The notes under the pieces are model-generated. The model ran no database searches, was not told the origin of the DNA, and worked only from the letters and a program-made list of their open reading frames with translations. Shown here piece by piece: positions 3,212-61,447 of a stretch of 64,000 nucleotides of DNA (positions are counted from its first letter, which is position 1; each line of letters begins with the position of its first letter). The stretch is from a virus. Lineage: Duplodnaviria; Caudoviricetes. The stretch covers positions 5,787 to 69,786 of IMG/VR virus record IMGVR_UViG_3300013947_000036. One strand, given 5' to 3'. The position numbers and the translations under genes are program-made.

Positions 3212-4174
3212 TTAATGATTGCTAGCTTCAATATATATTTTTTCTTTTTTTATAAGTGGTAAATTACAACAACCAAATTTAATTGGACATATTATTTTTT
3301 TAAATTTAATACTATTATAATATATATTTCCAATTGGTTTAATATTAGTAGAATATGCTGTTTGTGGACAATTATAAATTTCACCAATAGAATTTATATA
3401 AATTGCATCTATACCAGTATAACAAATATAATGATAAAATGTATTTATATTATTATTATTAATAATATCATCTTCAAAAACTTCATATATCTATTTTAAT
3501 TTATAATTATATATTATATATTTCTAATCATGTTTATTTTTAACATAATTATATAAATAATCATAATATTGTTTTTCTTCTAATGTATATAATTCATTAT
3601 ATGAATTTGAATTATCTATAAGAGAAATATCTAAATTATGCATAGATATATTATTTTTTTGATAAAAATCTAAAAATAATTTAAATAAATTTATATTTTG
3701 ATTTATATATTTATGTTCAAATAATACTATATTAAATATATTTTTAAAATTATGTAACTTTATATATTTATTAAAAAAATTATAAACTGTATTATTTGTA
3801 TTATTAAAATGATATGATATTGTTAATTCAAAATTTTTAAAATTTAACAAATCATTATAATAATTAATTGATTCTGAAAAATTTGTATATATATTAATAA
3901 TATAATTTGGATTTTCTTTTATAAATTTTTTTAAATCTGGATGTAATGTTGGTTCCCCACCTAATAATTGTATAATTATTTTTTTATTTTGTAAATGTTT
4001 AGTATTTTTAATAAAAGTTGTTAATTTATTTAAATTAAGATAATTATTTTTATTTTTTCTATAATTTTTAGTTGAACAATATGCACAGTTATAATTACAT
4101 TTATCAATAATATCTATATATAATAGAAATTTTTCAGTAGAATAAAACCATTTATTTTTTACAATTGAATACAT
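3212..4174 (-). CDS. Radical SAM protein with C-terminal Cys (SPASM/twitch-like) domain
   Basis: CNYNCAYC, LLGGEPTLHP; TAG at 3524 read through to TAA 3212. Confidence 0.8.
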
Positions 4175-4183
4175 TTTTTTAAT

Positions 4184-4355
4184 ATATAAAATATTATACA
4201 AATCAATATGAAAGTTATATAAAAATTCTTAGGATAGATGTCTATTTGAAAATAAGTTAAAGATGTTATCAAAACTTCATGGATATGAAGTCGTTGAAAT
4301 CAATCTAAGTTATACATCAATTATTAGAAATATTTTATATGGAAATGAAAATACT
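4184..4355. repeat. 172-bp inverted repeat, arm 2 (duplicated tnpB fragment)
   Basis: See 647-818. Confidence 0.9.
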
Positions 4356-4356
4356 A

Positions 4357-5295
4357 TTAACACATATAAAACTAATCACGATTATTAATAGTTAAAAAAT
4401 CTAACATTTGTTTATCACATTCAATACAAGATTGAAATTTGCCATTTAATATATCAGTATAATCTAAAATATTATCTTTATCAAATTCAGACTAATTTAC
4501 AAATAAATAATAACATATACAAGGGGTAACCTAACATAAATTATTTATACGTATAAATTTATTTTTATAACAATAACATTGTATATTTTTTATATTTGTT
4601 TCTTTTATTTTTTTTAAAAGTTTTCTATATTTATAACTAAATAATAAATCTGAACATATTTTATTATTTGCAAGAGTTTTATTTATATTAAATCTTTCAT
4701 AAATAGGATCAGTATCAATTATTTTATAATTAGAAAACTATTTTAAAATATTAAATATTTTATTATTATCTTCATTTTTATTATATTCAAATTTAATATA
4801 CTACATAACATCATTATGATTATTATTTTTAAATGCTAATGCATTTTCTAAAATATTATTTAATTTTGATCCAACTCTATATTTTTCATGTATTGCTTGC
4901 GTTGTACCACATATAGTAAATATTATTTTTGAGTTTGAATTAAAATGAGTACTTAATTTTTTCCACCAATTTATATTATGAAGTGTACCATTTGTAAATA
5001 AATTAATCTAAATATTTTTATAATAAAAATAATCTATAAATTTTATAAGCTCTGGATGTAATGTTGGTTCTGATAAATTTCCACCTATATTAATTTCTTC
5101 AATATTTGGATATTCACTTAATTTAATTAATAATTTATTAATATCAATAAATTTTTTTGGTAATTTTTTTATAAAAAATTTAAAATTTTTAAGCTATGAA
5201 ATACATAAAGGACACTTTAAATTACATATATTAGATAATTCAATATCTACAATTTTAATATCAGTTTTATTTAATATAAATTTTTTATTTATCAT
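4357..5295 (-). CDS. Radical SAM protein
   Basis: CNLKCPLC, GGNLSEPTLHP, LFTNG, C-terminal CxxC; open under TAG=Gln. Confidence 0.8.
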
Positions 5296-24670: not shown

Positions 24671-26728
24671 TTATTCAGAATCTTGTTTAGCTCCACCTTT
24701 TTTCAAACCTTTCATTGGAACAATGTAAAAATCTAAACCAGTGTTAACATTGTTGTCATCAGTGTTTTCTTGATTTTCTTCTGAGTTTTTAGAATCTTTA
24801 TTATCTTCTTCAGTTGATGCAGTTTTAGCTAAAATCTTGTCAATTGGCGTATTTGCTAATTTTTTCCAAACAATATTGTTGTCATTTAAATTGTTCAATT
24901 TTACTTCAGTGTCTTTTTCACTTAAATCAGCATCAGCTAATATTTCATAGAATGGCTTGAAACCAGATTTAGCATAATTTTTGTTTTCTTTGTTAGCATA
25001 TGCTAAAGATTTTCCATCTTTATTTACAAATGTTTGTTTTATGAACTCATCTAAATTAGATCTTATTTTTTGCAAATTTTCAATTATTCTTGGTATTGCA
25101 ATATTTTTGTATTTAGAATTGTCTTGTTTTTTAATATCTTCATCATTAGTGTTTTCTGAAGATTTTTCTGTTGTTTCATCTGATGATTTTTCATCTGTAG
25201 TCTCTGAAGTTTTTTCTTCTTTTTCTGTAACAGCAGTGTTTTCCTCAAAAAGCATTGACATAATATTGTTTGCTATATAGTTTTCAGATAAATATTCTAC
25301 ATCAACAATATCATCTGCTAGATATGTTTTCAATGTATTTTCTATTATAAGCTTTCCAGAAATGTTGTTTATTTGACTAGAATTGACTTCTTCCTTTTGT
25401 TTAGATTCTTTTTCTTCATTGTCAATATCTATTTTTTCATTATTATTTGCATCTTCAGAATAATTATTGACTAAAATAACATCTTTTGAACTTATTCCAT
25501 GCTTTAGTTTTTTGAACAATCCTTTTATAGAAGCATTAACTAAATCTGCAATTGATTGTTGATTGAAAAGTTTGTAGCTTTTATCTGATTTGTCGACTTT
25601 TACGCAAATAGCTAAATCAACTGCTTTTATAGCAGATTTAGCTTTTCCATCTAAACGTTTGCTAAGATTTTTTATTATAGTTTGTGAATCAATAATGACA
25701 GATTGAGCATTTGATTGTGGAAATTTATTTTTCAATTCAGAATTGAAATTTGATTGAAGTTCATCAGGATTTATTTTTCCAAAAACTTTGTCAAGTGAAT
25801 CTACTACATCACCAATAGTATGCACTTCTCCAGCTGAACCACTTCTCCAATCAAATGATGATACTCCTAAATTCTTGAATATATTTCCTAATGTTTTTCC
25901 AAGACTTTTTCCTATCATCTTGAATGCATCTGCAATTTTATGTTCAGGACGTCCTTTTACAATAAGATTATATGTTATGCACCAACCTTTTGCTTTTTGT
26001 GATTCAGTATTATTTGTATCAGTTTTTTGTGTTTTATCTTTTTCTGGTGCAGTGTCAGATGAATCAGATTTAGTGTCACTTGATTCAGCATTTTCTTCAG
26101 AAGATTCAGAATCTTCATTAGATTTTTCTGAAGCTTCATCTTCTGCAGCTTCATTCAATAAATATGTTGAAAATGATGGAATATGTATGCTTTCATTATT
26201 CTATTCATTAGATTTTTCAGTATTTTCAGCTGATGAAGATTCTTCATTTTGTTTTTCTTCTGTTTTATTTTCTTGTTCAGTATTGCTAGTTTCAGATCCT
26301 GGAATAATGTAGATTTTATCTGTTGTTATTTTAGATACAATATCTGGACCAGCAAACCATTGGACATATTCTTGAATGACTGGCAATGCTTCATCAACAG
26401 TAATCAACTAATCTTCTTTTGTTACTGTTGCAGCTATTATATTAGAACCAGCTCCAGTGAATTTAGCTGATTTTTTATCTTTTCCATCAATTGCACTATT
26501 TGTTATTTGAATATCAGAATTTTTAGCTGAAGCTTTTTTAGCAGCATTGAAATGTAAAGATATAAGTATCTAATCTAAATCAATATCGCAAACTGATACA
26601 GTTTTAGTATTTTCATCTGCAAACAAACTAATATTTTTGCTATCATCAGTTTTATTATCATCAGTTGATACTTGATTGTTTTCAGTTTTATTGTCAACTT
26701 CTTCGTTTTTTATATCTTCACTTGCCAT
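24671..26728 (-). CDS. Large acidic low-complexity protein
   Basis: ATG 26728 behind the promoter motif; readthrough joins the 68-aa and 495-aa ORFs. Confidence 0.65.
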
Positions 26729-35501: not shown

Positions 35502-37214
35502 ATGTGCAAAATTTCTGAAAAATCTAAAAATATTTTAAAACATATTGTAGAAACTCATTGTGTTTCATATGCAAGAATTTTAAAATCGAAAAAATATTCA
35601 GATTTGTTTTCTGAAATTTCAGTTGCTTTTGAAAATTTTCCAAATTTAGATCTAAACACTAGAATTTTTTGGATATTGAATAACTTAAAAACATATCCAA
35701 AATGTGAAATTTGTGGAAAAGAACTAGTGAAGACAAAATGTCATCCACTTGAAGGATACACTACCAAATTTTGCTCTAGCAAATGTGCACACAAAAGTCT
35801 TGCATTCAAAGAAAAAATTAAAAATGCATTAAGTTGCTATGATAGACAAAAAGCAATGCAAAAACGTGAATTGACTTGTTTAAAAAAATATGGTTGTAGA
35901 AATGTTTCACAAAATTCAGAAATAAGAAAAAAAATTTCAAAAACATTTTCTGAAAAAACTGATGCTGATATTTTAAAAACTACATTGAAAAGAAAAGCTA
36001 CAAAATTTGCAAGATATGGAGATGAAAATTATTTTGACAAAAACAAAAAACAGTCTACAATTGAAAAGAAAACAATAGAAAATCCAAAATATTTAAAAAA
36101 CATTGTAGAAAAAAGAAAGAAAACTTGTCTTAAAATATATGGATGTGATTGTGCAGCACAACGTGACATTGCAAAGAAAAATCGTGAAATTGCAATTTTC
36201 AAAGAACTCTATGAAAAAATGATGTCAAATGAAAAAGTTCTTCCATTATTTCAATTTGATGAATATTTTAAAGTTAAAAACACTCAAAAACTGAAATGGA
36301 AATGCAAAATATGTGGAAATGAATTTGAGTGTGAAGCTAATGATGGACATGGATTTCTTCCAAGATGCTACAAATGTTTTCCAAAGCAACAACCTGTGTC
36401 AAATGAAGAAAAAACATTAGTTGAATTCATTGAAAAACTTGACATTGAAATTCAAACTTCATGTAGAAAAATAATTCCACCATATGAACTTGACATCTAT
36501 ATTCCTGAAAAGAAACTAGCTATTGAATTTGATGGTCTATTTTGGCATAGTGAAAAAGCTGATGCAGAAGTTAGTTATCATTTAGTTAAAAATGAGATGT
36601 GTGAAAAACTAGAAATACAATTGATACATGTTTTTGAAGATGAATGGCTTTTCAAGAGAAAACAAACAGAAAATTTTTTGAAAAAAATTCTTGGAGTGCA
36701 AAATTGCTTCAAACATATCACAAATGATTTGTGTGAAATAATTGAACTTGATGATTTTCAAACATAGCAATTCATTTTTGAAAATTCATTGATAGAAAAT
36801 TTCAAACATGATGTTTCATTAGGCTTGAAATTTAAAAATGAAATCATAAGTTTGATGACTTTCACAAAAATATATGAAAATTCATATATAGTCAATTGCT
36901 ATGATGACAAAATTGGATTTGATGTGAAAGAAAGCAAGAAAAAACTATTGGACTATTTCATTAAAAATCACAAAACAAAAAGACTTATAGCTTTTGTAGA
37001 CAGAAGATTGCGTAATGGAGAAGATTTGAAGAAACTTGGATTCAAATTTCTCTTTGCTGGAGTTCCAAATGCATATCTATGGAATTTCAAAAACAAAAAA
37101 CAAAAAGAAACATTAGAAAAATCAATTGAAATTTCAAATGAAGAAAAAAATATGCGTGAATACACACGCATATATGATTCTGGAAATCTAGTTTTTGAAA
37201 AAACTTATTTCTGA
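35502..37214 (+). CDS. Homing-endonuclease-like protein HE1 (Zn module + PD-(D/E)XK/Vsr-like nuclease + GNAT-like C-terminal domain)
   Basis: RIFWILN..YPKCxxC, KYG repeats, PYELDIYIPEKKLAIEFDGLFWHS, YDSGNLVF tail. Confidence 0.7.
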
Positions 37215-37849: not shown

Positions 37850-39622
37850 TTGTATTGTCTAGACGAAATTTTGAATATGCATAATGAATCAATAGAAGAT
37901 ATTTTGAGAAATAGACTTAGTGAAATGAAACCAACAGCATTTTTTTGTTGGCTGAAAAAACAAAAAGAAATTCTAAATGAAATATCTAAGTTCACAGAAA
38001 AATTAAATGACAGAAAATTCAGTTTAAGGACAAAATTGTATTGGTATTTGAATAATTTAGTTGATTTTCCAAGATGTACAGTATGTGGAAAATTGATTGA
38101 AAAAGACATTGTGAACATGAAAATTGGCTATCATAGAACATGTTGCAAAAAATGTTGCTATAAAGATGAATCTAGAAACAAGAAAATATCAGAAGTATAG
38201 TTAAATAAATCAATTGATGAAAAGCTCTAGATTGAATCTAGAAAACAACAGACATGTTTAAAAAGATATGGTTGCAAATATACATTTTAGTCTGACAACA
38301 ACAAAGAAAAAACAAAATTGACTAATTTGAAGAAATATGGTTGTGAAAATTGCATGCAGTCTGATGTCATCAAGAAAAAAATGAAAGAAAACAATTTGAA
38401 GAAATATGGTTGTGAAAACGTTTTCCAAGTCAAAGAAGTCAAAACAAAATCAAGACAGACATTGAAAAAACATTATGGAAGTGAAAGATGTCTATATTCA
38501 AATTCAATTATTGCTGAAAAACGAATCAAGCATATGACAGAGACTTTAAGGAGAAAATCTTATAGAAACTGCATTTTGCAAAATGCATTTGACAAACCAT
38601 GTTTCACAGAAGACTATTTTGCAGAAAACTACAGCAAAGATTCAGAATTTGAATTTGAATGCAAAAAATGTGGAAACAAATTTCATTCAAAACATATAGC
38701 TGGTTGCCATATGCTTTGTCCAAAATGCTATCCAAGAACATCATCATTTCCAGAAAGACAAATAAGTGACTATTTGAAAAGCATATGCAAAGAAAACATA
38801 ATTCTCAATTCAAAAAACATCATTCCACCTTATGAACTTGACATATACATTCCTGAAAAGAAACTAGCTGTTGAATTTGATGGCTTGTATTGGCATGCAT
38901 TTGAAAATTTCTTGAAGTCAAAAGGAGACAAAAACTACCATCTAGCTAAGACTGAGATGTGTGAAAAACTTGGAATACAATTGATACATGTTTTTGAAGA
39001 TGAATGGAAACACAAACAAAAAACAGTTAAAAATCTGCTTAAAAACATTTTGAATATGGATACTGAAAACAATCAACTGAATGGAAACTATGAAATAAAA
39101 CTAGCAACATCTGATGAAAGTGAAAAATTCATAGATGAAAACTGTCTTTACAGTAACATAAATTCAAAAATACATCTTGGATTATATAAAGAAAAAGAAC
39201 TTGTAGCATTGATGTTGTTTGGAAAATCTAGATTCAAAAGACAGCATGAATGGGAATTGCTTAGATTCTGCATAAAGCAAAACTATGTCATATATGATGC
39301 AGCTTTTGAAAAATTGCTTAATTTTTTTGAATAGAATTTCAAACCTAAATCATTAGTTTCATATGTTGACAGACGATGGAACACTGCAAAACTGCATCAG
39401 AAACTTGGATTCAACTTGTTGAAAAAAACTAAGCCAAACTATTTTTATGTAGACAATAAACATCAACAAAGATTCAAGAATTTTCAATTCAAAAAACAAA
39501 TATTGAAAAACAAACTTAAAAACTACAATGATTCATTGACAGAATACCAAAACATGAGAAACAATGGATATGAAACTATATATGATTGTGGAAATCTTGT
39601 AATGGTGAAAACATATGTCTGA
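37850..39622 (+). CDS. Homing-endonuclease-like protein HE2
   Basis: Same architecture as HE1, with SYVDRRW...LGF motif; five TAGs read through. Confidence 0.7.
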
Positions 39623-48675: not shown

Positions 48676-49713
48676 TCAGTATGAAAACAGATTTGCGATA
48701 CGAGTTTCCAATGGCAATTCTGGTTTGAAAAATTCATAGTCTGCTTTTTTGCCAGATGTATACATTTTCTCCCAGCAATAAGCGATATAGTTTTCTGGAA
48801 ATGTTTTTATGTTGAGATAGTGCAGAATGAGATTGTGCATGCAGCATTTTCTGCATTTTCCACAATTATTTCCAAATAGTTGAACATTGAATTTGTTTTG
48901 TGTATGATTTCTGAATGTTTTGTTGAATCTTCCTGATGTGACGCATGAATAGTAATCATCTTGCAGATTGTATTTCAAAATAGTTTTCAGTCTTAAGCCT
49001 TTGTCTTGGCCATCTGGAATTTTGATGAATTCAAGATTTGAAATATAATTTTCAAGACAAGACAGATAAGTTTGTGTGATTTCTCTAGCATCAGTCAGAT
49101 TGACCCCAGGAACAGCTTTGTCAATAGTTAAATCGAAATCATCTCCTAAGCTTAAGTATTTCCAGTTTCTTTCTAGACATATGTCTGACATAACAGACAA
49201 TATAAGCTAATTTTTCATTGGATTTTCTGGCCAAAATTGCTTGTATGGATTGAAATGTGTGTCTTTTTCTAGATTTTTAGTAACTTTCATTGCTAGCAAA
49301 TCTAAACCTAGTTTTTCAGCTAAGATTTGAGCATATTTCCATGCTAAGCCATTTTCATATGTGTTTATGTTTCTAGCAAAAAACAAATGGACATTATAGC
49401 CAGCATTCTTGAGATATATAGCTTGGAAAACAGAATCTAGACCTGCACTGAAACCAAGTATGACATCTTTTGATTTTGTGTCTTGAATGGTATGTTTTCC
49501 AAGATTTATGTTTGATGTTTTTTCATATTTTTGTTTGAATCGATTGTATATCAAATCAACCATTGGAATGAAGCCAGACAATACTTCTAAATTTCTGTCA
49601 AACCATTTTTTGTTGAATACATCATATAGATTCAACATATCCTAAGACAAAAATGGTTTGTTTAGACAATCAATTTGGATTTTTGTAGCTAAAAATTTAG
49701 ATGTTATTTGCAT
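48676..49713 (-). CDS. QueC-like PP-loop ATPase
   Basis: FSAGLDS PP-loop, NPMKNQLILS, YYSC and CGKCRKC motifs in QueC order. Confidence 0.65.
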
Positions 49714-50804
49714 TAGATTTTGTCACTTTCATTGATGACTACGATATATTCGTCATTTTTTCCCCAATGGCATGTGTTTGTGAAAGTTTCTTTTACGAAG
49801 TTCTTGTATTTGACAATGCTTCCATCTACTACAAAAACATATCTTTTGCATTTGTAGTTTTTCAGACATGTCTCTATCCAATCATCACATGATATGTTAG
49901 ATTCTGGTACTCCATCCCATATTTCAGTGTTTCCATATGGAGGACATGTCAACAAACATTCATATGTTCCAGTGTTTTTAGTTGCATCTGCATTTGCAAG
50001 ATCATATTGTGGAATTATGCCATTTTTCTCAAAAATTGGTTTTGCGAAATCCATCAATTCTTTTGATTCTTCAATGACTCTTTTGCTAAGATCTCTTCCA
50101 ATATATTTCTTTCCAAGTGCTATTGTTCCTAGAAGTCTTCCACTGAAACCTGAAAATGGATCAAACACTTCATTGAAATCTTTCAGATATTTGTCGACTA
50201 GATATCTTGCAGCATGTGGTTTGAAAAGACCTACATTCATATATTTTCCTGATGTAGTCAAACCAATTGCATAGATGAATGGTGGAACTTTTCCTTCTAG
50301 AAGATATTTCCAATGTATGTCAAATGGTTCATTCTTTTTATGTTCATTGAACCAGTCAGAACAACGTAGTCTATTCAAATAGAATTTTCTGAAAATTTCT
50401 TTGTCATTTTGCAAAATTTTCCATCCAGTATTTGGTGAAGCATGTTTTTTCTTAGCTGCATCTAGAAAGCTTTTATGGAAATATTTTATGATTGGTGATT
50501 TTGTCTTCCAATTTCTTTGATGATTCACTAATGTAGATATTTCATTTTCATACACAGATCTAGATGGTTCTTTTTCATTGACACTTGGCAATGGATGAGA
50601 TTTGACCCATTCATATTCTCTATCTAGATATTTGTCAGCAATAGCTTCTGCAAATTTTTTTGTGCAATTGCCTTTGTATTTGTAATTTGGATTTCCAGCT
50701 TCTCTTTGTATTTTAAGAAAAACTTTGTTTTCTTTCAATCCATCATATGTCAATGGAAAATTTTCATTTTCTGGCAAAATGTCTTTTCTAGATATATCAT
50801 TCAT
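49713..50804 (-). CDS. SAM-dependent amino (N6-A/N4-C type) DNA methyltransferase-like protein
   Basis: VFDPFSGFSG (motif I), YIGRD, LLTCPPY (motif IV-like). Confidence 0.7.
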   Translation of the reverse strand: MNDISRKDILPENENFPLTYDGLKENKVFLKIQREAGNPNYKYKGNCTKKFAEAIADKYLDREYEWVKSHPLPSVNEKEPSRSVYENEISTLVNHQRNWKTKSPIIKYFHKSFLDAAKKKHASPNTGWKILQNDKEIFRKFYLNRLRCSDWFNEHKKNEPFDIHWKYLLEGKVPPFIYAIGLTTSGKYMNVGLFKPHAARYLVDKYLKDFNEVFDPFSGFSGRLLGTIALGKKYIGRDLSKRVIEESKELMDFAKPIFEKNGIIPQYDLANADATKNTGTYECLLTCPPYGNTEIWDGVPESNISCDDWIETCLKNYKCKRYVFVVDGSIVKYKNFVKETFTNTCHWGKNDEYIVVINESDKI

Positions 50805-50817
50805 GAATATATCATAC

Positions 50818-50867
50818 TTGAAAATCATAAGATAAATGCCATGTTGAAGACATGGCATAGAGTTCAC
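50818..50867 (+). mobile_element. 50-bp hairpin mini-element (copy 3; loop inverted)
   Basis: TCATAC|TTGAAAATCATAAGATAA ATGCCATG-TTGAAGA-CATGGCAT AGAGTTCAC. Confidence 0.7.
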
Positions 50868-50870
50868 TTT

Positions 50871-51686
50871 TCAATCAACATAATCATCATATTTGATTCC
50901 AACAGCTTCTGCTATCTATTGTTGATATTGCATTATTTTCTGAAAATTATTTCTTAAATTATTTTTAGTCATTGACTATTCTGAACATTTCTAAATGCAA
51001 ATTGGAACTCTAGAATAAAAACGTTTTAAATTATTCAATACCTAATATTTAAAATTGTCAATTTTTTCATCTTTCTAAAATGGTATTTCTCTATATATGA
51101 TATCAGCTAATTCCATTTGATATTCATAAAGTCCTCTTAATGCAATATATCCATTTTTTGACAATGCATAACATAAACCTGAACTTACTGTAGTTGTTTT
51201 TGAAAATGGAATGAACAATTGATTGTTTTTTCTTGCAGTTTTCATTTCAATTAAATAATTAGAAATTTCAGTTTTTATATCTGGACAAGGAGTCTAAAAA
51301 TGTGAAAATAGACATAAATCATAATCCTTTATTGTTTTTTCAGCTTCTTCTAAAATTTCTGAGATTTTGTCAAGATTCTTCAAAAAAGAAAAATCATCTT
51401 CCATAATCAAAATCTTATTGTAATTATTCAATTCAGCAATTTTCATTATAGAATAATGGCCAAATGCACATGAAAATGCTGAACTAGAAGTTAAACGTTT
51501 TTCACAATTTATATTTTGTTTTAAAATATCAAAAAATGGTGATGAAATATTTTCATGAATATGTAAAATTCCACTGTCACTTAAACCAACTCTTTTAAGT
51601 TCAGAATGCATTTTGTCTTCTATATGTTTATATCCAGCATAATGCAATATATACACAGCATCAAAATATTTTTTCCAATCTATCAT
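50871..51686 (-). CDS. Glycosyltransferase family 25-like
   Basis: FDAVYIL, CAFGHY, ILIMEDDF motifs. Confidence 0.7.
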
Positions 51687-51695
51687 GAGTTTCCT

Positions 51696-52409
51696 TTATC
51701 TTTTATATGGAGATTCAATTTTATTTAACTCTATCATTTTTATGTTTTTTACAACAATCGATTTGTCATAAAATTTCATGAATATCCAAAAACCTGACAT
51801 TCTTTCTAAAATAAAACCTAATGCACGTTTTTGATATTTGTCTCTTAAATCTAGATTCAATTCTGGCAATATTTTCAAAGCAATATCAATACATATGTTT
51901 ATAAATTTGCTATATTCAAAAAACATTTTTTTGCTAAATACAAACATATTGCATTTTGCATAAACATGCTAATTAAGATATGTATTCAATAAAATTTGAT
52001 ATTCTTTTAAATATTTAGAAAATAAACTTAAAAATAAATCAAAATCATGTTTAATATGATATAAACAATAAGATTGATATATTGTAAAATATTTGTTTTT
52101 GCTAAATGTACATAAAATATTGTTGTCATTTAAATCATCAATTTTAAAATCTAAATATCTACGATATTGCGCAATTCCAATAAAATCTGGATTTCCAAGC
52201 AATTCATAATTTTTACTTAACCAATATATCATTGACATTTCATTCAAATATTGATTGTATTTTGATATATTGTCAATTCCAATGTCATCAGTGAATATCA
52301 TTTTAGATGAATTATATCCTCCACATCCAATAGGAACATATATGTCTTTTTTGAATTCATCTATAATTTCTGTTTCAAAACTATAGCAAATTGGAATTTT
52401 TAATGTCAT
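51696..52409 (-). CDS. DUF4422-like (glycosyltransferase-associated) protein
   Basis: DDIGIDNISKYN..LNEM..IYWL.KN....DFIGIAQYRRY, NMF, ER motifs. Confidence 0.7.
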
Positions 52410-52423
52410 TAAATATATTTTAC

Positions 52424-52475
52424 AAAAAAAATTGACAAGAAAGATGCCATGTCTTCAGCATGGCATAGAGTTCAC
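52424..52475 (+). mobile_element. 52-bp hairpin mini-element (copy 4)
   Basis: TTTTAC|AAAAAAAATTGACAAGAAAG ATGCCATG-TCTTCAG-CATGGCAT AGAGTTCAC. Confidence 0.7.
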
Positions 52476-52567
52476 AAAAAAAATGATAAAAAGATATTTT
52501 TATGTTTTAGATTATTTTTTTTTTGAAAAGTAAATAATAAATAACTTTATAAAGGAAAAAAATAAAA

Positions 52568-52768
52568 ATGACAGTAAATCAAGTAAGAAATTATATGATA
52601 AATAATATGCATAGAAATTCAGTTTTATATGCTGCAGCAGCTACATTAGCATTATTATCTGATGAAGTATCATCTAATGTATCATCAGAAGTATCATCTA
52701 ATGTATCATCAGAAGTATCATCTAATGTATCATCAGAAGTATCATCTAATGTATCATCTAATACATAA
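52568..52768 (+). CDS. 66-aa protein with SSEVSSNV tandem repeats
   Basis: Promoter motif at 52526, AAAGGA upstream, four 24-bp repeats at ~52664-52762. Confidence 0.5.
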   Translation: MTVNQVRNYMINNMHRNSVLYAAAATLALLSDEVSSNVSSEVSSNVSSEVSSNVSSEVSSNVSSNT

Positions 52769-52843
52769 TTTTAAAATTAGATTGTATTTAAATTATAAAA
52801 ATAAATAAATTTCATAAATAGAATAATTTTATTTTTAAGTTGA

Positions 52844-52893
52844 GTGCACTCTATGCCATGCTGAAGACATGGCATCTTTCTTGTCAAATTTTT
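52844..52893 (-). mobile_element. 50-bp hairpin mini-element (copy 5)
   Basis: GTGCACTCT ATGCCATG-CTGAAGA-CATGGCAT CTTTCTTGTCAAATTTTT; near-identical to copy 4, inverted. Confidence 0.7.
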
Positions 52894-52948
52894 GAAAAAT
52901 AGATTTAATATTAAATCAAAAAATAAAATAATTTGAGTAAATAAATAT

Positions 52949-54166
52949 ATGCAATTAGTAGAGAAACATATTATAAAAAGAGAAGATTCTAGATACAAAG
53001 AACTTATGGAACTTTGTCATCTTTCTAAGAATCTCTACAATACTGTTCTCTACACTATCCGTCAACATTGGTTTGAAACAAAAAACGATGACACAATCAC
53101 ACATAAATTTCTCAACTACTATGATGTTTGGAATATTTTAAAAAAAGACAATGTTGATTTTAAAGCTTTGAATGCACATTCTTCTTAGTTAGTGATAAAA
53201 CAAGTTGAAGCAAATTTCAGTTCGTTTTTCTCATTACTGAAACTCAAGACACAAGGAAAATATACTAAAAAAGTCCATCTTCCAAAATATCTTGACAAAG
53301 ATGGCTATAATGTGATTTCTTTCAACCAATTCAAGAAAAAAGAATTGAAAAACGGATATGTTTCATTACCAAAATCAAAAACATTGAAATTCAAAATCAA
53401 AAACACAAATCTTCATTTTATCAATATCGTTCCAAAGAATGACTATGTTCAAGTGAATTTCATCTACAAAAAACAAGAAGAATCTTTGAAAAAAGACAAT
53501 GGAAGATACATAGGAATAGATTTAGGTATAGACAATCTTGCAACATGTACTTCAAATGCATTGCAATCATTTATCGTAGATGGAAAGAAAGTCAAACATA
53601 TAAATCAATTTTACAACAAAAAACTAGGAGAAGTTAAATCAGAATTAAAAAAGAAAAACAACAAAGAAAAATCACATAAAACAAGACAATTGACATTAAA
53701 ACGAAACAATAAAATACAAGACTATTTTCACAAAGCTAGTCGATATATAATCAATCAAGCAGTTTCCAATGATATTCGAACAATAATAGTCGGACACAAC
53801 AAGAACTGGAAGCAAGAGGTTAATATCGGAAAAGTTAATAATCAAAAATTCGTTCAGATTCCTTTTGACAATTTGATTCATCAACTTAAATACAAAGGTC
53901 AATTGAAAGGAATAAATGTAATTGAAGTTGAAGAAGGATATACATCAAAGTGTTCTTTTCTAGACAATGAATCTGTTGAAAAACATGAAAAATATCTTGG
54001 AAAAAGAATATATAGAGGATTGTTCAAAAATTCAACAGGAAAAGTCTTGAATGCTGATGTGAATGGAAGTCTAAACATCATGAGAAAATATCTAAAATGT
54101 AACTGTGATGCTATTAAGCCAACAGATGCAGGGTTTGTGTATAACCCAGTTAAAGTCTACCTTTAA
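52949..54166 (+). CDS. tnpB: TnpB RNA-guided endonuclease (TnpB1; no tnpA)
   Basis: MQLVEKHII, SKNLYN, GIDLGIDNLA, EEGYTSKCS, NADVNGSLNI; one TAG at 53186 in SS(Q)LV. Confidence 0.9.
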
Positions 54167-54197
54167 CAAAGTTTATTCTATTTATGAATTACGGTAC

Positions 54198-54355
54198 ATG
54201 AATGGCTTGACAAACAAAAAATAGTGAAATCACGCTTAAAACATTTGATTGTGAATAATGAAAGAAAAATTTTTGCTAGAAAATGCATAGTCAAAGAAAT
54301 AGACAATGCATTGAAAGACAAATTTTTGAACAAATACCACATTCAAGGAAAAGAT
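54198..54355 (+). pseudogene. HE7 middle fragment, between two IS insertions
   Basis: EWLDKQKIVKSRL...FARKC...HIQGKD; 5' part of the gene missing. Confidence 0.75.
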
Positions 54356-54426
54356 ATAATAAATATTTCTGTTAAAAATATTAAAAATTGTTATAAATAT
54401 AAAATACTCTATGTATAATACTATAT

Positions 54427-55035
54427 ATGAAAAGCTGTAAAGTATTAAAATTATTAAATATAACACGTCCAACATTATGTAGATATGTTAAAAATGGTTT
54501 AGTTAAATTTAAACAACTTCCGAATGGTTTTTATGATTATGAAGAAGAATCTATCTATAAACTTTTAAATAAAAATATTGAACGTAAAAATATTATTTAT
54601 GCACGAGTATCTACACAAAAATAGAAAAATGATTTAGAAAATCAAAAAGCAATACTTAGAAAGTATTGTTCAATAAATGGGATAAAAATTTCTGATGAAT
54701 ATTCTGATATTGGTTCAGGAATAAATTTTGAACGGAAAGAATTCTAGCGATTAGTTAATGATGTAGTTAATCATAAAATTTCAAAAATCTATATAACATA
54801 TAAAGATAGATTGTCTAGAATATCATTTGATATGTTTAAGAATTTATTTTAGAATTTTAATTGTGAAATTATTGTTTTAAATAATACAGATGATAACAAA
54901 CAAATTGAAAAAGAGATTTTCAATGAAATAATTAGTTTGATACATTGTTTTGCAATGAAAGTTTATTCTTCTAGACGTTAGAAAAAATTAAAAAATATTG
55001 AAGAAGATTTAAAAATTGAAATAAATGAAGAATAA
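54427..55035 (+). CDS. tnpA: IS607 TnpA (MerR-like HTH + serine recombinase)
   Basis: IIYARVSTQK(Q)KNDLENQ, DIGSGINF, KDRLSRISF; four in-frame TAGs. Confidence 0.9.
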
Positions 55036-55128
55036 ATATTATTAATATTAATAATATTTAAAAATAAATATTAAAATAAAAGTAAATAATATTAAAAAAT
55101 GTAAATAAAATAAAGTAAATAAATACAA

Positions 55129-56520
55129 ATGCAAAGAGTGGAGACATATATTTTGAGAAAAACCAAAAACAAGAAGGAATATCTTGCTTTAGTTGATATA
55201 TGTCATAAATCAAAAAATCTTTACAATTATGTGAATTATGTTTTAAGACAATGTCAAACAAATAAACTTGAAAATATATTTGAATTCAAGGATTTGATTA
55301 AAACCGAAAAGAAAACAAAAAACGGAAAAATATATATTCAGAACTTTATTTCAGAATTTGATTTGTCAAAACGTCTTTCTAAACTGAAACAATTTGACTA
55401 TACAAATTTAAAAGCACAAGTTTCTCAACAAACAATTGCATTGGTATTTAAAAATTATAAATCATTTTTCAAGGCATCATCTGATTTTTTCAAAAATAAA
55501 TCTAAGTATAAAGGAAAACCAAAACTTCCTAAATATAAAGATAAAAATGGTTTGAATGTTTCAATTTTCACAAATCAATGTTCTACAATTGATAAAAATG
55601 GAAATCTGAAACTTTCAAAAGATTTGATTTTGAAATCAGTTAAAACTGATATTTCAAAACAAAATTTCAAACAAGTTAGGATAATTCCAAGACTAGATTA
55701 TTTTCAAATAGAAATAGTTTATGAGAAGTTGGAAGGAGAATATACAAAACAAGCAAAAAGAAAAAACAAAAAACTAAATACTGCATCAATTGATTTAGGT
55801 GTAGACAATCTTGCTACTATAACTTCAGACAACATGGTTCAACCAATTATTGTCAATGGTAGAGTATTGAAGTCTATCAACCACTTTTACAACAAACAGT
55901 TAGGAAACATAAATTCAATTTATTCAAAACACAATATTCATACAGGAAAGAAATTGAAAAAACTCAATTCAAAAAGATGTTTTAAGATAAATGACTATTT
56001 TCATAAAGCATCTAGAAGAATTGTTGATTTTTGTATAAATAATGATGTGAATACTTTGTATGTAGGATTAAACAAAAATTGGAAACAGAATTGTGATTTA
56101 GGAAAAAGAAACAATCAGAAATTCATCCAAATTCCTTATGACAAATTGATTCAAAAAATAAAATACAAATGTGAAGAAGTTGGAATAAATTGTGTTTGTG
56201 TAAATGAAGCTTATACTTCTAAATGTTCTTTCTTGGATAATGAATCTGTTGAAAAACATGAAAAATATCTTGGTAGAAGAACAAAAAGAGGGTTGTTTGA
56301 AAGTGGTAATAGAAAGAAATTGAATGCTGATGTGAATGGAAGTCTGAATATTTTGAGAAAGAACAATGGAAAAATAAAATTTTCAAACAAAATATTCAAT
56401 CCTATGAAAATAAAAGACGTAAATGCAATTTGTGATGTTGCTTATTTCAAATGGCAACCAACAAATACAGGTTGTGTGTTTCAACCAAATAGTAGTGATA
56501 CTATTAAAGATTTTTATTAA
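55129..56520 (+). CDS. tnpB: TnpB RNA-guided endonuclease (TnpB2)
   Basis: SKNLYN, SIDLGVDNLA, NEAYTSKCS, NADVNGSLNI; no TAG. Confidence 0.9.
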   Translation: MQRVETYILRKTKNKKEYLALVDICHKSKNLYNYVNYVLRQCQTNKLENIFEFKDLIKTEKKTKNGKIYIQNFISEFDLSKRLSKLKQFDYTNLKAQVSQQTIALVFKNYKSFFKASSDFFKNKSKYKGKPKLPKYKDKNGLNVSIFTNQCSTIDKNGNLKLSKDLILKSVKTDISKQNFKQVRIIPRLDYFQIEIVYEKLEGEYTKQAKRKNKKLNTASIDLGVDNLATITSDNMVQPIIVNGRVLKSINHFYNKQLGNINSIYSKHNIHTGKKLKKLNSKRCFKINDYFHKASRRIVDFCINNDVNTLYVGLNKNWKQNCDLGKRNNQKFIQIPYDKLIQKIKYKCEEVGINCVCVNEAYTSKCSFLDNESVEKHEKYLGRRTKRGLFESGNRKKLNADVNGSLNILRKNNGKIKFSNKIFNPMKIKDVNAICDVAYFKWQPTNTGCVFQPNSSDTIKDFY

Positions 56521-56549
56521 ATTTTAATAAATTTAATAAAATGAATAAC

Positions 56550-57005
56550 ATAGCAAAAACTAGACTTGGATTGTTTTACAACAATCATTTGATAGCTGTC
56601 ATGACATTCACAAAATCTAGATTCAACAAAAAATATGAATATGAATTGAGCAGATATGCAACAATTTCAAATTTCACAATTATTGGTGGAGCTGGAAAGC
56701 TTTTGAAATATTTTGAAAGAAATTTCAATCCAAAATCTATTGTCACATATGCTGACAGAAGATGGAGTAAAGGAAATCTATATTTCAAACTTGGATTCAA
56801 ACTAGATCATATATCAACTCCAAATTATTTCTATGTGAAAAACCAACATAGATTTTCAAGAATTCAATTTCAAAAACATAAACTTGAAAATATTCTAGAA
56901 AATTTCAATCCAAATTTATCTGAAGCTCAAAATATGAAAAACAATGGCTATGGAAAGATATATGATTGTGGAAATCTAGTATTTGAGAAAACTTATGAAA
57001 AATGA
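56550..57005 (+). pseudogene. HE7 3' fragment (GNAT-like domain)
   Basis: RLGLFY...VMTF...YELSRY...GGAGKLL...TYADRRWS.G.LY..LGF...YDCGNLVF. Confidence 0.75.
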
Positions 57006-58821
57006 ATTTGAAAAACTTAAAAATCAAATACTCAATTTCACAAACAAAACAAATATTCGTGATAGACTAGTGTATTTCAAAAAAAGAGTTAAACTTGATA
57101 CAAAATTGAACAAATCTAGTTTTTTCTTGAATTCAAAACTATGTTCGAATATAGTTGCTGCAACAAATTTTCTTCCAGAAAATGTTCCAATGTATTTTAG
57201 GATCAAATGTATATTGAAAAATATGACAAAACTTGAAAAATGCCAAATATGTGGAAAAGATCGTGCATTATTGTTTTCAAAAAAATTCAAAGATCCAATT
57301 CAAAAAACTACATGTGGAAATGCAACTTGCATTGCAAAACTTGCAGGATCTCAACACAAAATGACATCTGATGAAAAAATGTTGCACAAAAATATCATGT
57401 GTAAGCAAAAACAAGATATTGTCAAATACGCTAAGCAATTGCTAATTAAATATGAAACTAGAAAATTCAATTTGATTGACAGAAAAACATTAGAAGAAAA
57501 AATCAAAAATCTTCTAAAAACTTGCAATTCATTTAAAAATATTGCATTCATCAAAGACAAAATGTATGTGAATGAAATTGATTTTCTATGTTCAATTATT
57601 GATATGACATCTTTCATTGAAATTGACAAAAACAATTTCAAATGCAGATCATTCAGATGGGCTGAAAGATTATATTGCATTTTAAACAACTTGAAAACAA
57701 AACAAATTTGCAAATTTTGTGGATGTGAAAGCAAATTCATTTCATTTTATTAGGGTTATTCAGACACTTGCAAAAAATGCAGTGGACAAAAAATTCGTGA
57801 AGTCATGAATGGCATGCCATTATCAGACATAAGAAAACAAATAAATGAAAACAAATATGAAATTTTGAATTTTCCAACTAATACAACTAGACAACCATTG
57901 ATTGTCAAATGCAAAAAATGCCATCATATATCAAAAGTTTGGCTTTATAATGGCATAAGCAAAAAAATTTCTTAGCTTAATTTATGCAAACATTGCAAAG
58001 CTAAAGACAGAACATCAAAAGAAGAAAATGAATTGTTTGATTTTGTTTAGTCTTTGCTTCCAAATGAACTTATTTTTAGAAATGACAGAACTATCATAAA
58101 TCCACTTGAATTAGATATAGTCATTCCATCTAGAAAACTTGCAATTGAATTTGATGGCATATATTGGCATAATGATTAGCATATTGCAAACAACTATCAT
58201 TTGCAAAAAACTATTCTATGCAATAAAGCTGGATATAAATTAATTCATATATTTGAAAATGAATGGTTATCTGACAAAAAAATAGTCAAATCAATTTTAA
58301 TTGACAAACTTAAATGTAGTTTAAAAGAAACAATTGATGCAAATAAATGTTCTATATATGAAGTTAAAAATGAATATGAAAAATTAAAATGTCAAACATT
58401 CATAAATGAAAATAGTTTAATTAAAAATGAAAATTTTGATATTGCATTATGTATGAAATTTGAAAATTATATTGTAGCAACAATGACATTTTGTGAATTG
58501 ACTAATGATATATTCAAAATTATTGATTTTTGCATTAAATCAGATTTAAATATAAAAGAAGGCTTTGAATCATTTTTAAAATATTTTGAAAAAAATTTCA
58601 ATCCTAAAAAATTATATGCAAGTATCAATAGACGATATAGCATTGGAAATTAGTTTTTAAGTACTAGTTTTAAATTGATTGAAACTACACTTCCTAAATG
58701 TTCATATTTTATATACAATAAAAAACAAAAAATTTTTAATTCGCTAAAAACACAAACAAATAATTGTCATACAATATATGATTGTGGAAATCTAGTATTT
58801 GAGAAAACTTATGAAAAATAA
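56995..58821 (+). CDS. Homing-endonuclease-like protein HE8
   Basis: PLELDIVIPSRKLAIEFDGIYWH, IHIFENEW, YDCGNLVF; six TAGs read through. Confidence 0.7.
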
Positions 58822-58844
58822 AAAGGATGCTTAAGCATCCTTTT
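58821..58844. terminator. Bidirectional terminator
   Basis: Perfect palindrome AAAAGGATGCTTAAGCATCCTTTT between convergent genes. Confidence 0.75.
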
Positions 58845-58867
58845 TAATAATTTTATTTTTTTTAATT

Positions 58868-61447
58868 TTATTGCATTGCTTCTTCGAAGCTTCCACCAGT
58901 TGTCAATGCAATGAAATCAATCAATATGAATTCAGCAGTCTTAGTAGGTTTAATTCCTATTTTAACTTTCAATTCATTTCTGTCAATTACTTCAGGAGTA
59001 TTAGTAGTTTCATCACAGATTATTTTATAATCATATATTCCACCACCAATTTTTGCAGCTTTCATATATGGATCTATAGCATCAACTAAACGTTGACGTG
59101 TATATGCAGTATTTCCTTCATAAACAAAATATCTTGCAACTTTATATGCTTGACGTTCAAGTCTAAGGAATAATCTGCGAACATTTACACGATCAAATGC
59201 AGAAGCTGCAACTTGGAAAGTCTTTTGACCTTCTAGAACAATTCCATCTGATGGATAATTGATTGCATAATTCCAATTCTTTTCATAGATTGAACCAGCT
59301 TGTTTAGCATTAGGACTGAAAGCTACATCAGTTGCAGAAATTACACCTCTATTCAAACCAGCTGGAGCATCCCAATAGTTGAAATTGACATCAGTATTGA
59401 TGTAAACGCCCATAGCTTTGATTGAAGGTGGAAGCCAGAATAAATCTCCAGAGAATTCATCTGCTATTTCAAACCAATCTATATATCCAGCACCATAGTT
59501 TGTGTTTAGACCAGTGACAAATTTGATGTATGGAAGAATATTTGCATCAATTGTATTAGTTGGTTTTGATGATCTTATGATTTTCTTTTGTCCAGAAATT
59601 ACTAATGGTCTTGGACATTCTGTTATGAACATGCAATCTTTTCTTGTTTTTTTGCAAAATGTGTCATATTTTTGTACAACAGTTTTCCATGTTTTAATTG
59701 CAGCATTATTTGAATCACATTTCCAGCTTGCAATCAATGGAGTTTCTCCATCTGAAGCTAGTTCTGTTAAATTGTATTTTCCAGATTTTTCATATACTGC
59801 TTTTATGAATGATGCAATATTTGAAATACCAGCATCACAAACAATGTCAATGTCTCTTTCATTGATATCAGACACTTTTTCAAATGATTTATTCAAACCA
59901 TCATATATTGATTTGTCAATTGATATATTTTCAACTGTTTGTTCTTCATAAAAACCTAGAATACCAGTTATTCCAAGTGGTTTAGCAATATGGATATCTA
60001 AGCTATTATAATAATTATTTTTTGCTGTTTTAGTATTGTAGCAATTTGAAAATAGATAGATATAATTTGAAGAATTATTTACAATTCTGTCAATGAATTT
60101 TGATGCACCAGTATTTTGATCTTTTTCATCTTTTTGAAGTGATCCACAGAAAGCTTCAACTGGTTCAAATGCAATCTTGTTGCCTTCAGCTGAATCTACA
60201 TACATCTTGAATACAATAACACCAATGTCTTTTAGATGTTCACGTTTGAAACTAGATAATGTTGAATCATATTCAATTGTTGAAAAGTATTCATTAGCAT
60301 CAAATGAAACTGTTTCTGGAAGAGCATTGTCACCATCTTCTGCATTCCATGTCATTCTATTGTTGTATATAGCTTCAGTTTCAAGAACATTTTCTCTAAA
60401 ATCACCAATTGTATCTTCTGAATCATCATCAATTGAAATTGAAAGCTAATCTTTAACATCTGAAAATATAGGATTATCATTTAACAAATCATTGAATTCA
60501 CTTACTTTAGTAGCTAAAGTTTCATTACCAATGTTTGTATCACTAACTGCAGTCAATGATGTATTTAATTGTTTATTTAAACTATCTATAACAGTTTTGA
60601 AATCACCTAATGTATCTAAAATACTTTCAATTGAAGCATATGCTTGTTTGTAATTCTTATATGCACTGTTCAACTGTTTAACTAGATCATGATTTATTGC
60701 ATAAACAAATTCATCTTTATCATTAACATATCCAGATGAAATAGTATTTTCACCATATAGTGTTTTGCATTCACCAATGACTTCAAAATATTTAGCATTT
60801 TGTGGTTCAACATTTATTAGGCTTTGTGCATAAAGTGCATTTGCTGCTGTAGTTATGACTGGCAATATTCCAATCATTTCACGATCTTGACCTTTTCTAT
60901 GGTCTTCTGGAATCTTCTTATATGTTGCGCATGTTTTGTCAACTATCAAAATTGTGTCATTTGCAACTTTTTTTTCATCAGTTCTATATTCATCTACCTC
61001 TGATTGTGAATACATTGTAGGTTCTTGTGCACCATTAATGACAGCTACTTTGTTGATTGTTTTATCAACAGCTGAAATGCAATCTATGACAGTTGACAAT
61101 TGCAAATCACTAGTCAAAACTGATGTATCTTGCATAGTGTTAACATTATATTTGTAGCCAACTAATTTTTCAAATGATTCATTGTCATATGGAAGACGTG
61201 CACAATAAAGTCTTCCATTTTGATTCAAAACTTCAATGCATGCATTGTAGAAATATTTTTCTGCTTCATTGTCTGGTTCACCATAATAATTAGTCCATGC
61301 AGCACGTGTTGTAAACTCCATTGGCTAATATGCTTCACCTTTATTTGCAAAACCTGCAATATAGCATGTGGTTCCTGTCATTGCAGGACTATATTGTGAT
61401 TTATCTATTTCTTTGATTTCAACACCAGGTGCTGTTATAACTCTCAT
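58868..61447 (-). CDS. gp18: Tail sheath protein, gp18-like (copy 1)
   Basis: APGVEIKEID, WDAPAGLNRG, AFDRVNVRRLF, CDETTNTPEVIDRNEL; 859 aa. Confidence 0.92.

Follow-up and report, generated by a model that had tools for sequence, protein, structure and literature searches.

A TnpB element of a TAG-recoded phage is probably a non-autonomous, IS607-like element with its own empty site as the homing target

The TnpB systems with which the present locus can best be compared belong to the IS607 and IS200/IS605 families. In CboIStron, a member of the IS607 family, the TAM is TGGG, the scaffold ends in UCGG and the TnpA core is GG (Zedaveinyte et al., PMC10690162); TAM and scaffold end have their final two bases in common and are unlike at position -3, and position -1 is unpaired (PMC10690162). 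In ISDra2 and the IS200/IS605 elements, the guide comes from the flank of the right end and the omegaRNA extends over the 3' part of tnpB; both features are also predicted for TnpB1, the protein studied here (Karvelis 2021, PMC8612924; Meers 2023, PMC10055086). At the level of the protein, Altae-Tran et al. 2023 (PMC10691335) described TnpB clades with a rearranged RuvC-II and an NADxN RuvC-III, and argued that these clades are active since the changes are conserved. The C4 zinc finger has been lost in some of the rearranged branches, and some such branches are enriched in viruses (PMC10691335).

The gene for TnpB1 lies in a 64,000-nucleotide stretch of phage DNA, the whole of which was analysed here (the window). 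The parent IMG/VR record has a length of 69.8 kb and a completeness of about 25% (CheckV), which implies a jumbo phage of about 280 kb. The region around TnpB1 is a cluster of mobile DNA with a glycosyltransferase operon on one side and tail-sheath genes on the other; megablast of positions 49000-60000 against deposited phages returned no match. The parts of the element and its two junctions are as follows.

52779-52782, plus strand: left junction AGAT, candidate TAM/target motif, with AT as the candidate core dinucleotide
52783-52948, plus strand: left end and 5' leader, 166 nt, kept in the copies from 12 contexts
52936-52943, plus strand: AGTAAATA, a motif found upstream of phage genes; the tnpB1 ATG follows after 5 nt
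52949-54166, plus strand: tnpB1, 405 amino acids with TAG read as glutamine, with Pfam domains
53186-53188, plus strand: the single in-frame TAG of tnpB1, Gln80
54014-54199, plus strand: inferred omegaRNA scaffold, with helices at 54098-54167 and then a conserved tail ending ACAT
54200-54215, plus strand: predicted 16-nt guide GAATGGCTTGACAAAC, which follows directly on the conserved ACAT

Long genes of the window are mostly broken under translation table 11, and reading TAG as glutamine rejoins split frames across its whole length. A preliminary description of this DNA had pointed to one in-frame TAG in tnpB1, which is there, and had called the gene recoded. Because TAG stands for glutamine window-wide, the codon reflects the code of the genome and is not a peculiarity of tnpB1. 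It falls on a conserved residue (Q80 is glutamine in at least 90% of relatives), and the copies of the TnpB1 family contain between 0 and 6 TAG codons each.

The identification of the protein as TnpB was borne out by both Pfam domains, OrfB_IS605 (PF01385, 76.7 bits, cut-off 30.5) and Cas12f1-like TNB (PF07282, 41.9 bits, cut-off 26.3). In a sequence search against solved structures, TnpB entries were too distant, and the best matches were Cas12f (E = 1e-7). D191, E326/E328/E329 and D370 are invariant among relatives. The canonical position of the RuvC-II glutamate is occupied by G282, which falls opposite the E of IQMEDL when aligned with a Cas12f entry, and it is followed by an invariant acidic cluster, EVEEGYTS, in which E326, E328 or E329 is the candidate alternative glutamate. 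RuvC-III reads NADVNG, and the zinc-finger cysteines (CxxC pairs) are missing. The glycine at the canonical glutamate, the alternative acidic cluster and NADVNG are features of the rearranged clades, some branches of which likewise have no C4 zinc finger (PMC10691335). The apparently relocated glutamate and the loss of the zinc finger distinguish TnpB1 from the protein of CboIStron. Since the RuvC-II glutamate is Gly282 and the zinc-finger cysteines are gone, the case for activity is drawn by analogy from these clades, and by this analogy TnpB1 is probably active as an RNA-guided nuclease. tnpB1 is under strong purifying selection, with a dN/dS of 0.03-0.06 against relatives (codons 1-340).

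The element was compared with 12 relatives of 62-87% amino acid identity, which are situated in different contexts in large recoded phage contigs. Many full-length relatives exist in this range; the genes beside these copies include gyrB, NAD synthase, ligase and NrdD, and one identical TnpB protein was found at two sites. In two other cases (L006:6279-7283 and a copy in the P0069 context), the element is located 30-160 nt upstream of a DUF7487-type endonuclease gene, and endonuclease genes are abundant in both genomes.

On the left, conservation starts about 170 nt before the ATG, at AGAT-TGTATTTAAA, and still further to the left the copies bear no relation to one another. The junction itself is AGAT in about 10 of 13 independent cases (variants are AAAT, AGGT and TGAT); comparison alone does not distinguish it from sequence of the element, one copy reading AGGT. 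The left end of the relatives contains two GAGTAAAT(A) motifs, of which the first is interrupted in TnpB1. As the conservation of the relatives begins at the matching AGAT-TGTATTTAAA, the left end of TnpB1 is complete. The earlier view that the left host flank is absent had mistaken the anatomy: the 166-nt left end follows directly after AGAT, and the missing part on the left is half of an endonuclease gene. On the right, all copies finish in ACAT and then diverge completely, which places the end of the element at 54199, 2 nt beyond the position 54197 proposed before. Most copies have AT at the left as well as at the right junction. As judged from the aligned copies, the element spans 52783-54199 and comprises the left end, tnpB, the omegaRNA and the right end.

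A tnpA gene was sought inside 52783-54199 and beside all 12 relatives, and none was found, so that TnpB1 is at most a non-autonomous IS607 derivative. It had been called an orphan, which holds insofar as no tnpA is adjacent; an IS607-type element with a tnpA, however, is inserted a short distance downstream in the same gene relic. One likeness to IS607 is the serine-recombinase tnpA with a MerR-type HTH that accompanies both this neighbouring element and relatives of TnpB1, TnpB relatives at 44% identity being located directly behind such genes. Neither a Y1 tnpA in this region of the window nor a terminal hairpin in the right-end tail was found, and the lack of a Y1 transposase and of end hairpins sets TnpB1 apart from ISDra2 and the IS200/IS605 elements.

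Over its final ~250 nt, the element shows unusually high nucleotide conservation. From 11 copies, RNAalifold predicted 23 pairs at 54098-54167, with structure in the last ~100 nt; 96.8% of the cells at these positions are paired versus 33-41% when the partners are slid, and the covariation is 0.303 versus 0.05-0.075, a value reached in none of 500 shuffles. The fold of the single sequence is unremarkable (z = -1.17), and an Rfam scan of 52000-59000 gave no omegaRNA family, only a sub-threshold match to sraA. The conserved, covarying structure agrees with the RNA that had been postulated at the 3' end of TnpB1, and we infer that the TnpB1 transcript is processed to an omegaRNA. A sister group of TnpB proteins at ~51% amino acid identity (L024-L047, in human-gut contigs of ~150 kb) was left out of the RNA alignment because of its different right end, a terminal hairpin past the stop codon that ends in AATCACCT and is followed by variable flanks.

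From the first base past ACAT, the sequence differs in every copy (12 or more), in keeping with the earlier proposal that the right flank serves as the guide. The junctions AGAT and ACAT share AT and differ at -3 and in this way mirror those of CboIStron (PMC10690162). By this parallel, position 54200 is most likely the first of the guide, which would make (N)AGAT the TAM and ACAT the end of the scaffold. The use of the right flank as the guide is also as in CboIStron and IS607, and so is the absence of target duplication, which is shown for the neighbouring IS607. In contrast to CboIStron, TnpB1 has neither its own tnpA nor a group I intron, its core would be AT and not GG, it is found in TAG-recoded phages, and its left end contains a motif that is seen upstream of phage genes. 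Position 9 of the guide (54208) is polymorphic, T or C, with C in strains L108, L110 and L115.

Miniature derivatives are seen in a related phage record, G001, unlike in the window. Two identical copies of 340 nt are present at separate sites (G001:~4130-4520, L117/L118, and G001:143876-144215, L119), in which an in-frame fusion joins the left end and the first 10 codons with the last ~60 codons plus the right end. They keep the last ~210 nt, equal to the omegaRNA/right-end segment, and resemble MITE-like miniature IS derivatives in having lost most of what lies between the left end and the omegaRNA/right end. Their presence at several sites indicates that the TnpB1 family is mobile and is moved in trans, and their structure delimits the functional RNA/right-end module. 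One of these copies occupies the exact site that is filled by a full-length copy in L013. G001 also contains a Y1 transposase gene interrupted by TGA (L126/L127, G001:76493-76905) and a serine tnpA of which only a 57-aa N-terminal fragment is left (L123, G001:143230-143397), ~480 nt upstream of one of the miniature copies.

The octamer AGTAAATA, whose location 5 nt before the tnpB1 ATG was confirmed, occurs 20 times in the window compared with 7.9 copies expected. Most copies are 5-50 nt before starts on the same strand, including those of tnpB2 and of the tail-sheath genes, and in the relatives the motif is part of the left end of the element. The left end of TnpB1 has in addition received an insertion.

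52844-52893, minus strand: hairpin mini-element, 50 nt, nested in the first GAGTAAAT motif of the left end

This mini-element is missing from all 12 relatives and present in 8 of 8 near-identical strains. It has an inverted twin at 52424-52475, and the 37-nt core that the two share is present in the window in two copies without a mismatch. A reading of the hairpin at 52851-52887 as a left-end hairpin of the IS200/605 type was rejected, as it belongs to this separate element on the opposite strand that the relatives do not have. The 50-nt insertion may impair transposition or expression. The twins face the starts of tnpB1 and of a DUF4422 gene, respectively; ATTTAC, the complement of GAGTAAAT, resembles the TTTTAC/TTATAC sites behind which such mini-elements are reported to sit, which may explain the presence of mini-elements at promoter-like boxes. 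A TnpB copy beside a DUF4422 gene in L012 was examined as an orthologous insertion and discarded, the DUF4422 proteins being 34% identical and the flanks unalignable.

The right flank of TnpB1 is the relic of an endonuclease gene, HE3, which is itself split by the neighbouring element.

54200-54357, plus strand: HE3 relic, part A, EWLDKQK...YHIQGKD, aligned to HE1, HE2 and HE4
54358-56551, plus strand: IS607-type element, 2,194 bp, Pfam Resolvase and OrfB_IS605
54427-55035, plus strand: tnpA serine recombinase in IS607, Pfam Resolvase
55129-56520, plus strand: tnpB2 in IS607, OrfB_IS605, behind the serine-recombinase tnpA
56552-57005, plus strand: HE3 relic, part B, C-terminal domain ending ...EKTYEK and a stop codon, in the ORF 56541-57005

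Parts A and B together correspond to the last ~200 codons of a paralogous endonuclease gene. Part B is 52% identical to the C-terminus of HE4 (gene at 37850-39622), which is a nearer paralogue of HE3 than HE1 and HE2. In the left flank (52410-52960), the search for the HE3 N-terminus or a tnpA remnant yielded noise-level matches only. The flanks of TnpB1 are not halves of one gene, and therefore a rearrangement presumably came after the insertion; most likely, the 5' part of HE3 was lost when the element recombined with another copy of itself.

The IS607-type element starts 158 bp past the end of the TnpB1 element. Among the eight near-identical strains, all of which were retrieved through the TnpB1 protein itself, its site is filled in three (L109, L112, L113) and empty in five (L108, L110, L111, L114, L115). 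The empty site GAT-ATA-GCA (GGAAAAGAT-ATA-GCAAAAAC) restores one continuous frame of the relic, and comparison of filled and empty alleles revealed no duplication and a 3-nt overlap at the junctions. Since the element is polymorphic with a precise empty site, transposition by a serine recombinase must have been recent in this phage population. The element ends in ...AACAT, and its tnpB2 has 0 TAG codons compared with 4 in its tnpA.

Taken together, we consider it probable that TnpB1 is a complete, non-autonomous and selfish IS607-like element, presumably still active, that homes to its own empty site. The element would have integrated at AGAT in an intact HE3, at the codons GAA-GAT/GAA-TGG of the FEDEW motif, and a later rearrangement would have removed the 5' part of HE3. 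The processed transcript would consist of the scaffold ending in ACAT and the next ~16 nt (54200-54215) as the guide, and TnpB with this omegaRNA would cut AGAT followed by the guide sequence. Its target would be the allele of a co-infecting sister phage that has no element, or else the joint left behind in the donor upon excision, and recombinational repair would copy the element back in, as in standard TnpB homing; retention of the element by cutting of the empty site is also the role proposed in ISDra2 homing (PMC8612924, PMC10055086). Movement to new sites would depend on a transposase acting in trans; the likeliest candidate is a serine recombinase such as the one of the neighbouring IS607.

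Two sites in the resident endonuclease genes resemble the target expected from the guide, and they bear on what the nuclease may cut.

36638-36657, plus strand: HE1 look-alike, AGAT then GAATGGCTTTTCAAGA, 12 of 16 positions matching the guide
38998-39017, plus strand: HE4 look-alike, AGAT then GAATGGAAACACAAAC, 12 of 16 positions matching the guide

The preliminary description had reported a match of 14 of 16 nt to HE1, the first 11 being perfect, and this match is real (54198-54213 versus 36640-36655, the position 36650 given for it being approximate), as is the TAM-like sequence at the HE1 site, where AGAT precedes. From it came the suggestion of a nuclease aimed at the endonuclease family, either as a hyperparasite or as a domesticated weapon. 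Spelled out, the TnpB1-omegaRNA would cut HE1 or HE4, or the endonuclease genes of competing phages, and would hop between such genes or act as a weapon, which we hold to be quite improbable. HE1 and HE4 read TTTGAAGAT followed by GAATGG and HE2 reads TTTGAAAAT followed by GAATGG, the codons of an FE(D/N)-EW motif with the junction before EW; among more distant homologues of the relic, GAAGAT is found just upstream of the site in 9 of 13, 8 of which continue with GA(A/G)TGG. The ancestral HE3 site thus almost certainly offered AGAT, as far as can be read from these homologues. The TAM-like AGAT and up to six bases of the guide overlap a conserved catalytic motif and are common to many members of the family, so the insertion into the codons of FEDEW accounts for the likeness of the guide to HE1 and HE4 by paralogy, and the guide need not have been aimed at the family. 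In the register of CboIStron, the match to HE1 falls to 12 of 16, with the first 9 positions perfect and mismatches at 10, 11, 15 and 16, and that to HE4 is perfect over the first 6 with mismatches at 7-10. ISDra2 TnpB does not cleave targets that carry a double mismatch within positions 1-12; the double mismatch at 10-11 therefore makes cross-cutting of HE1 unlikely, and cutting of the resident endonuclease genes by TnpB1 is by this comparison unlikely in general. Strains with C at position 9 match HE1 over only 8 nt, an unrelated site at 24950, which has no TAM, agrees with the guide over 11 consecutive nt, and intact HE1 and HE4 coexist with TnpB1. The guide would match an intact HE3 allele elsewhere perfectly, and the two copies just upstream of DUF7487 endonuclease genes might be read in the same sense; the guides of the other 12 copies are, however, unrelated to endonucleases. 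TnpB1 is trivially a parasite within a parasite, being inserted in a homing-endonuclease gene. No sign of domestication was found, and the miniature derivatives at several sites mark the family as mobile.

It is also unlikely that TnpB1 has become a fixed, immobile gene of the phage that excludes sister phages without the insertion or has another RNA-guided function. The gene is at the same site in the eight near-identical strains with differences of 2-4 nt, the mini-element interrupts the left end, the gene-upstream motif is directly before the ATG and TnpB1 has no tnpA of its own, all of which would suit an immobile gene. However, these strains are too similar to reveal long-term retention, the architecture is identical to that of copies at many other loci, and the promoter-like motif belongs to the element in all relatives and was not gained here. 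The L012 copy is not orthologous, and the exclusion of element-free genomes would be the same mechanism as homing. It seems hardly likely at all that TnpB1 is a stranded wreck, intact in sequence and without function for want of a transposase, an undamaged left end and a remaining target. The interrupted left end, the loss of the 5' half of HE3 and the presence of the element in every sampled strain (retrieved, as they were, via TnpB1) would fit such a state, but the ORF is undisrupted with its residues conserved, the second promoter-like motif is intact, and a serine recombinase is encoded 228 bp downstream in some strains. The homing element thus remains the reading that we prefer, and with it the apparent RNA-guided attack on homing endonucleases becomes a side effect of the landing site of a transposon.

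The TnpB1 lineage is IS607-like and adapted to TAG-recoded jumbo gut phages, both in its code and in its upstream motifs. It represents a useful natural system, in which the solo-TnpB family is well delimited and strongly conserved, has an apparently rearranged active site and includes miniature derivatives, and TnpB1 may offer a compact nuclease without a zinc finger. The exact ends, the predicted TAM (AGAT) and the guides form a basis for studying TnpB homing during phage co-infection, while the neighbouring IS607 provides a natural pair of filled and empty alleles with exact junctions that coexist in near-identical strains. A further idea, that the lineage is a phage-specialised RNA-guided homing element that spreads between co-infecting jumbo phages without its own transposase and uses endonuclease paralogues as preferred landing pads that can be re-targeted repeatedly, appears to us very improbable; if true, it would be a genuine RNA-guided hyperparasite of protein-guided homing endonucleases.

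To the left of the element, a small ORF (52568-52768) contains a 12-nt tandem repeat (SSNV/SSEV) that varies in length among the near-identical strains, its product having 66 amino acids here and being called with 58 or 74 amino acids in the strains.
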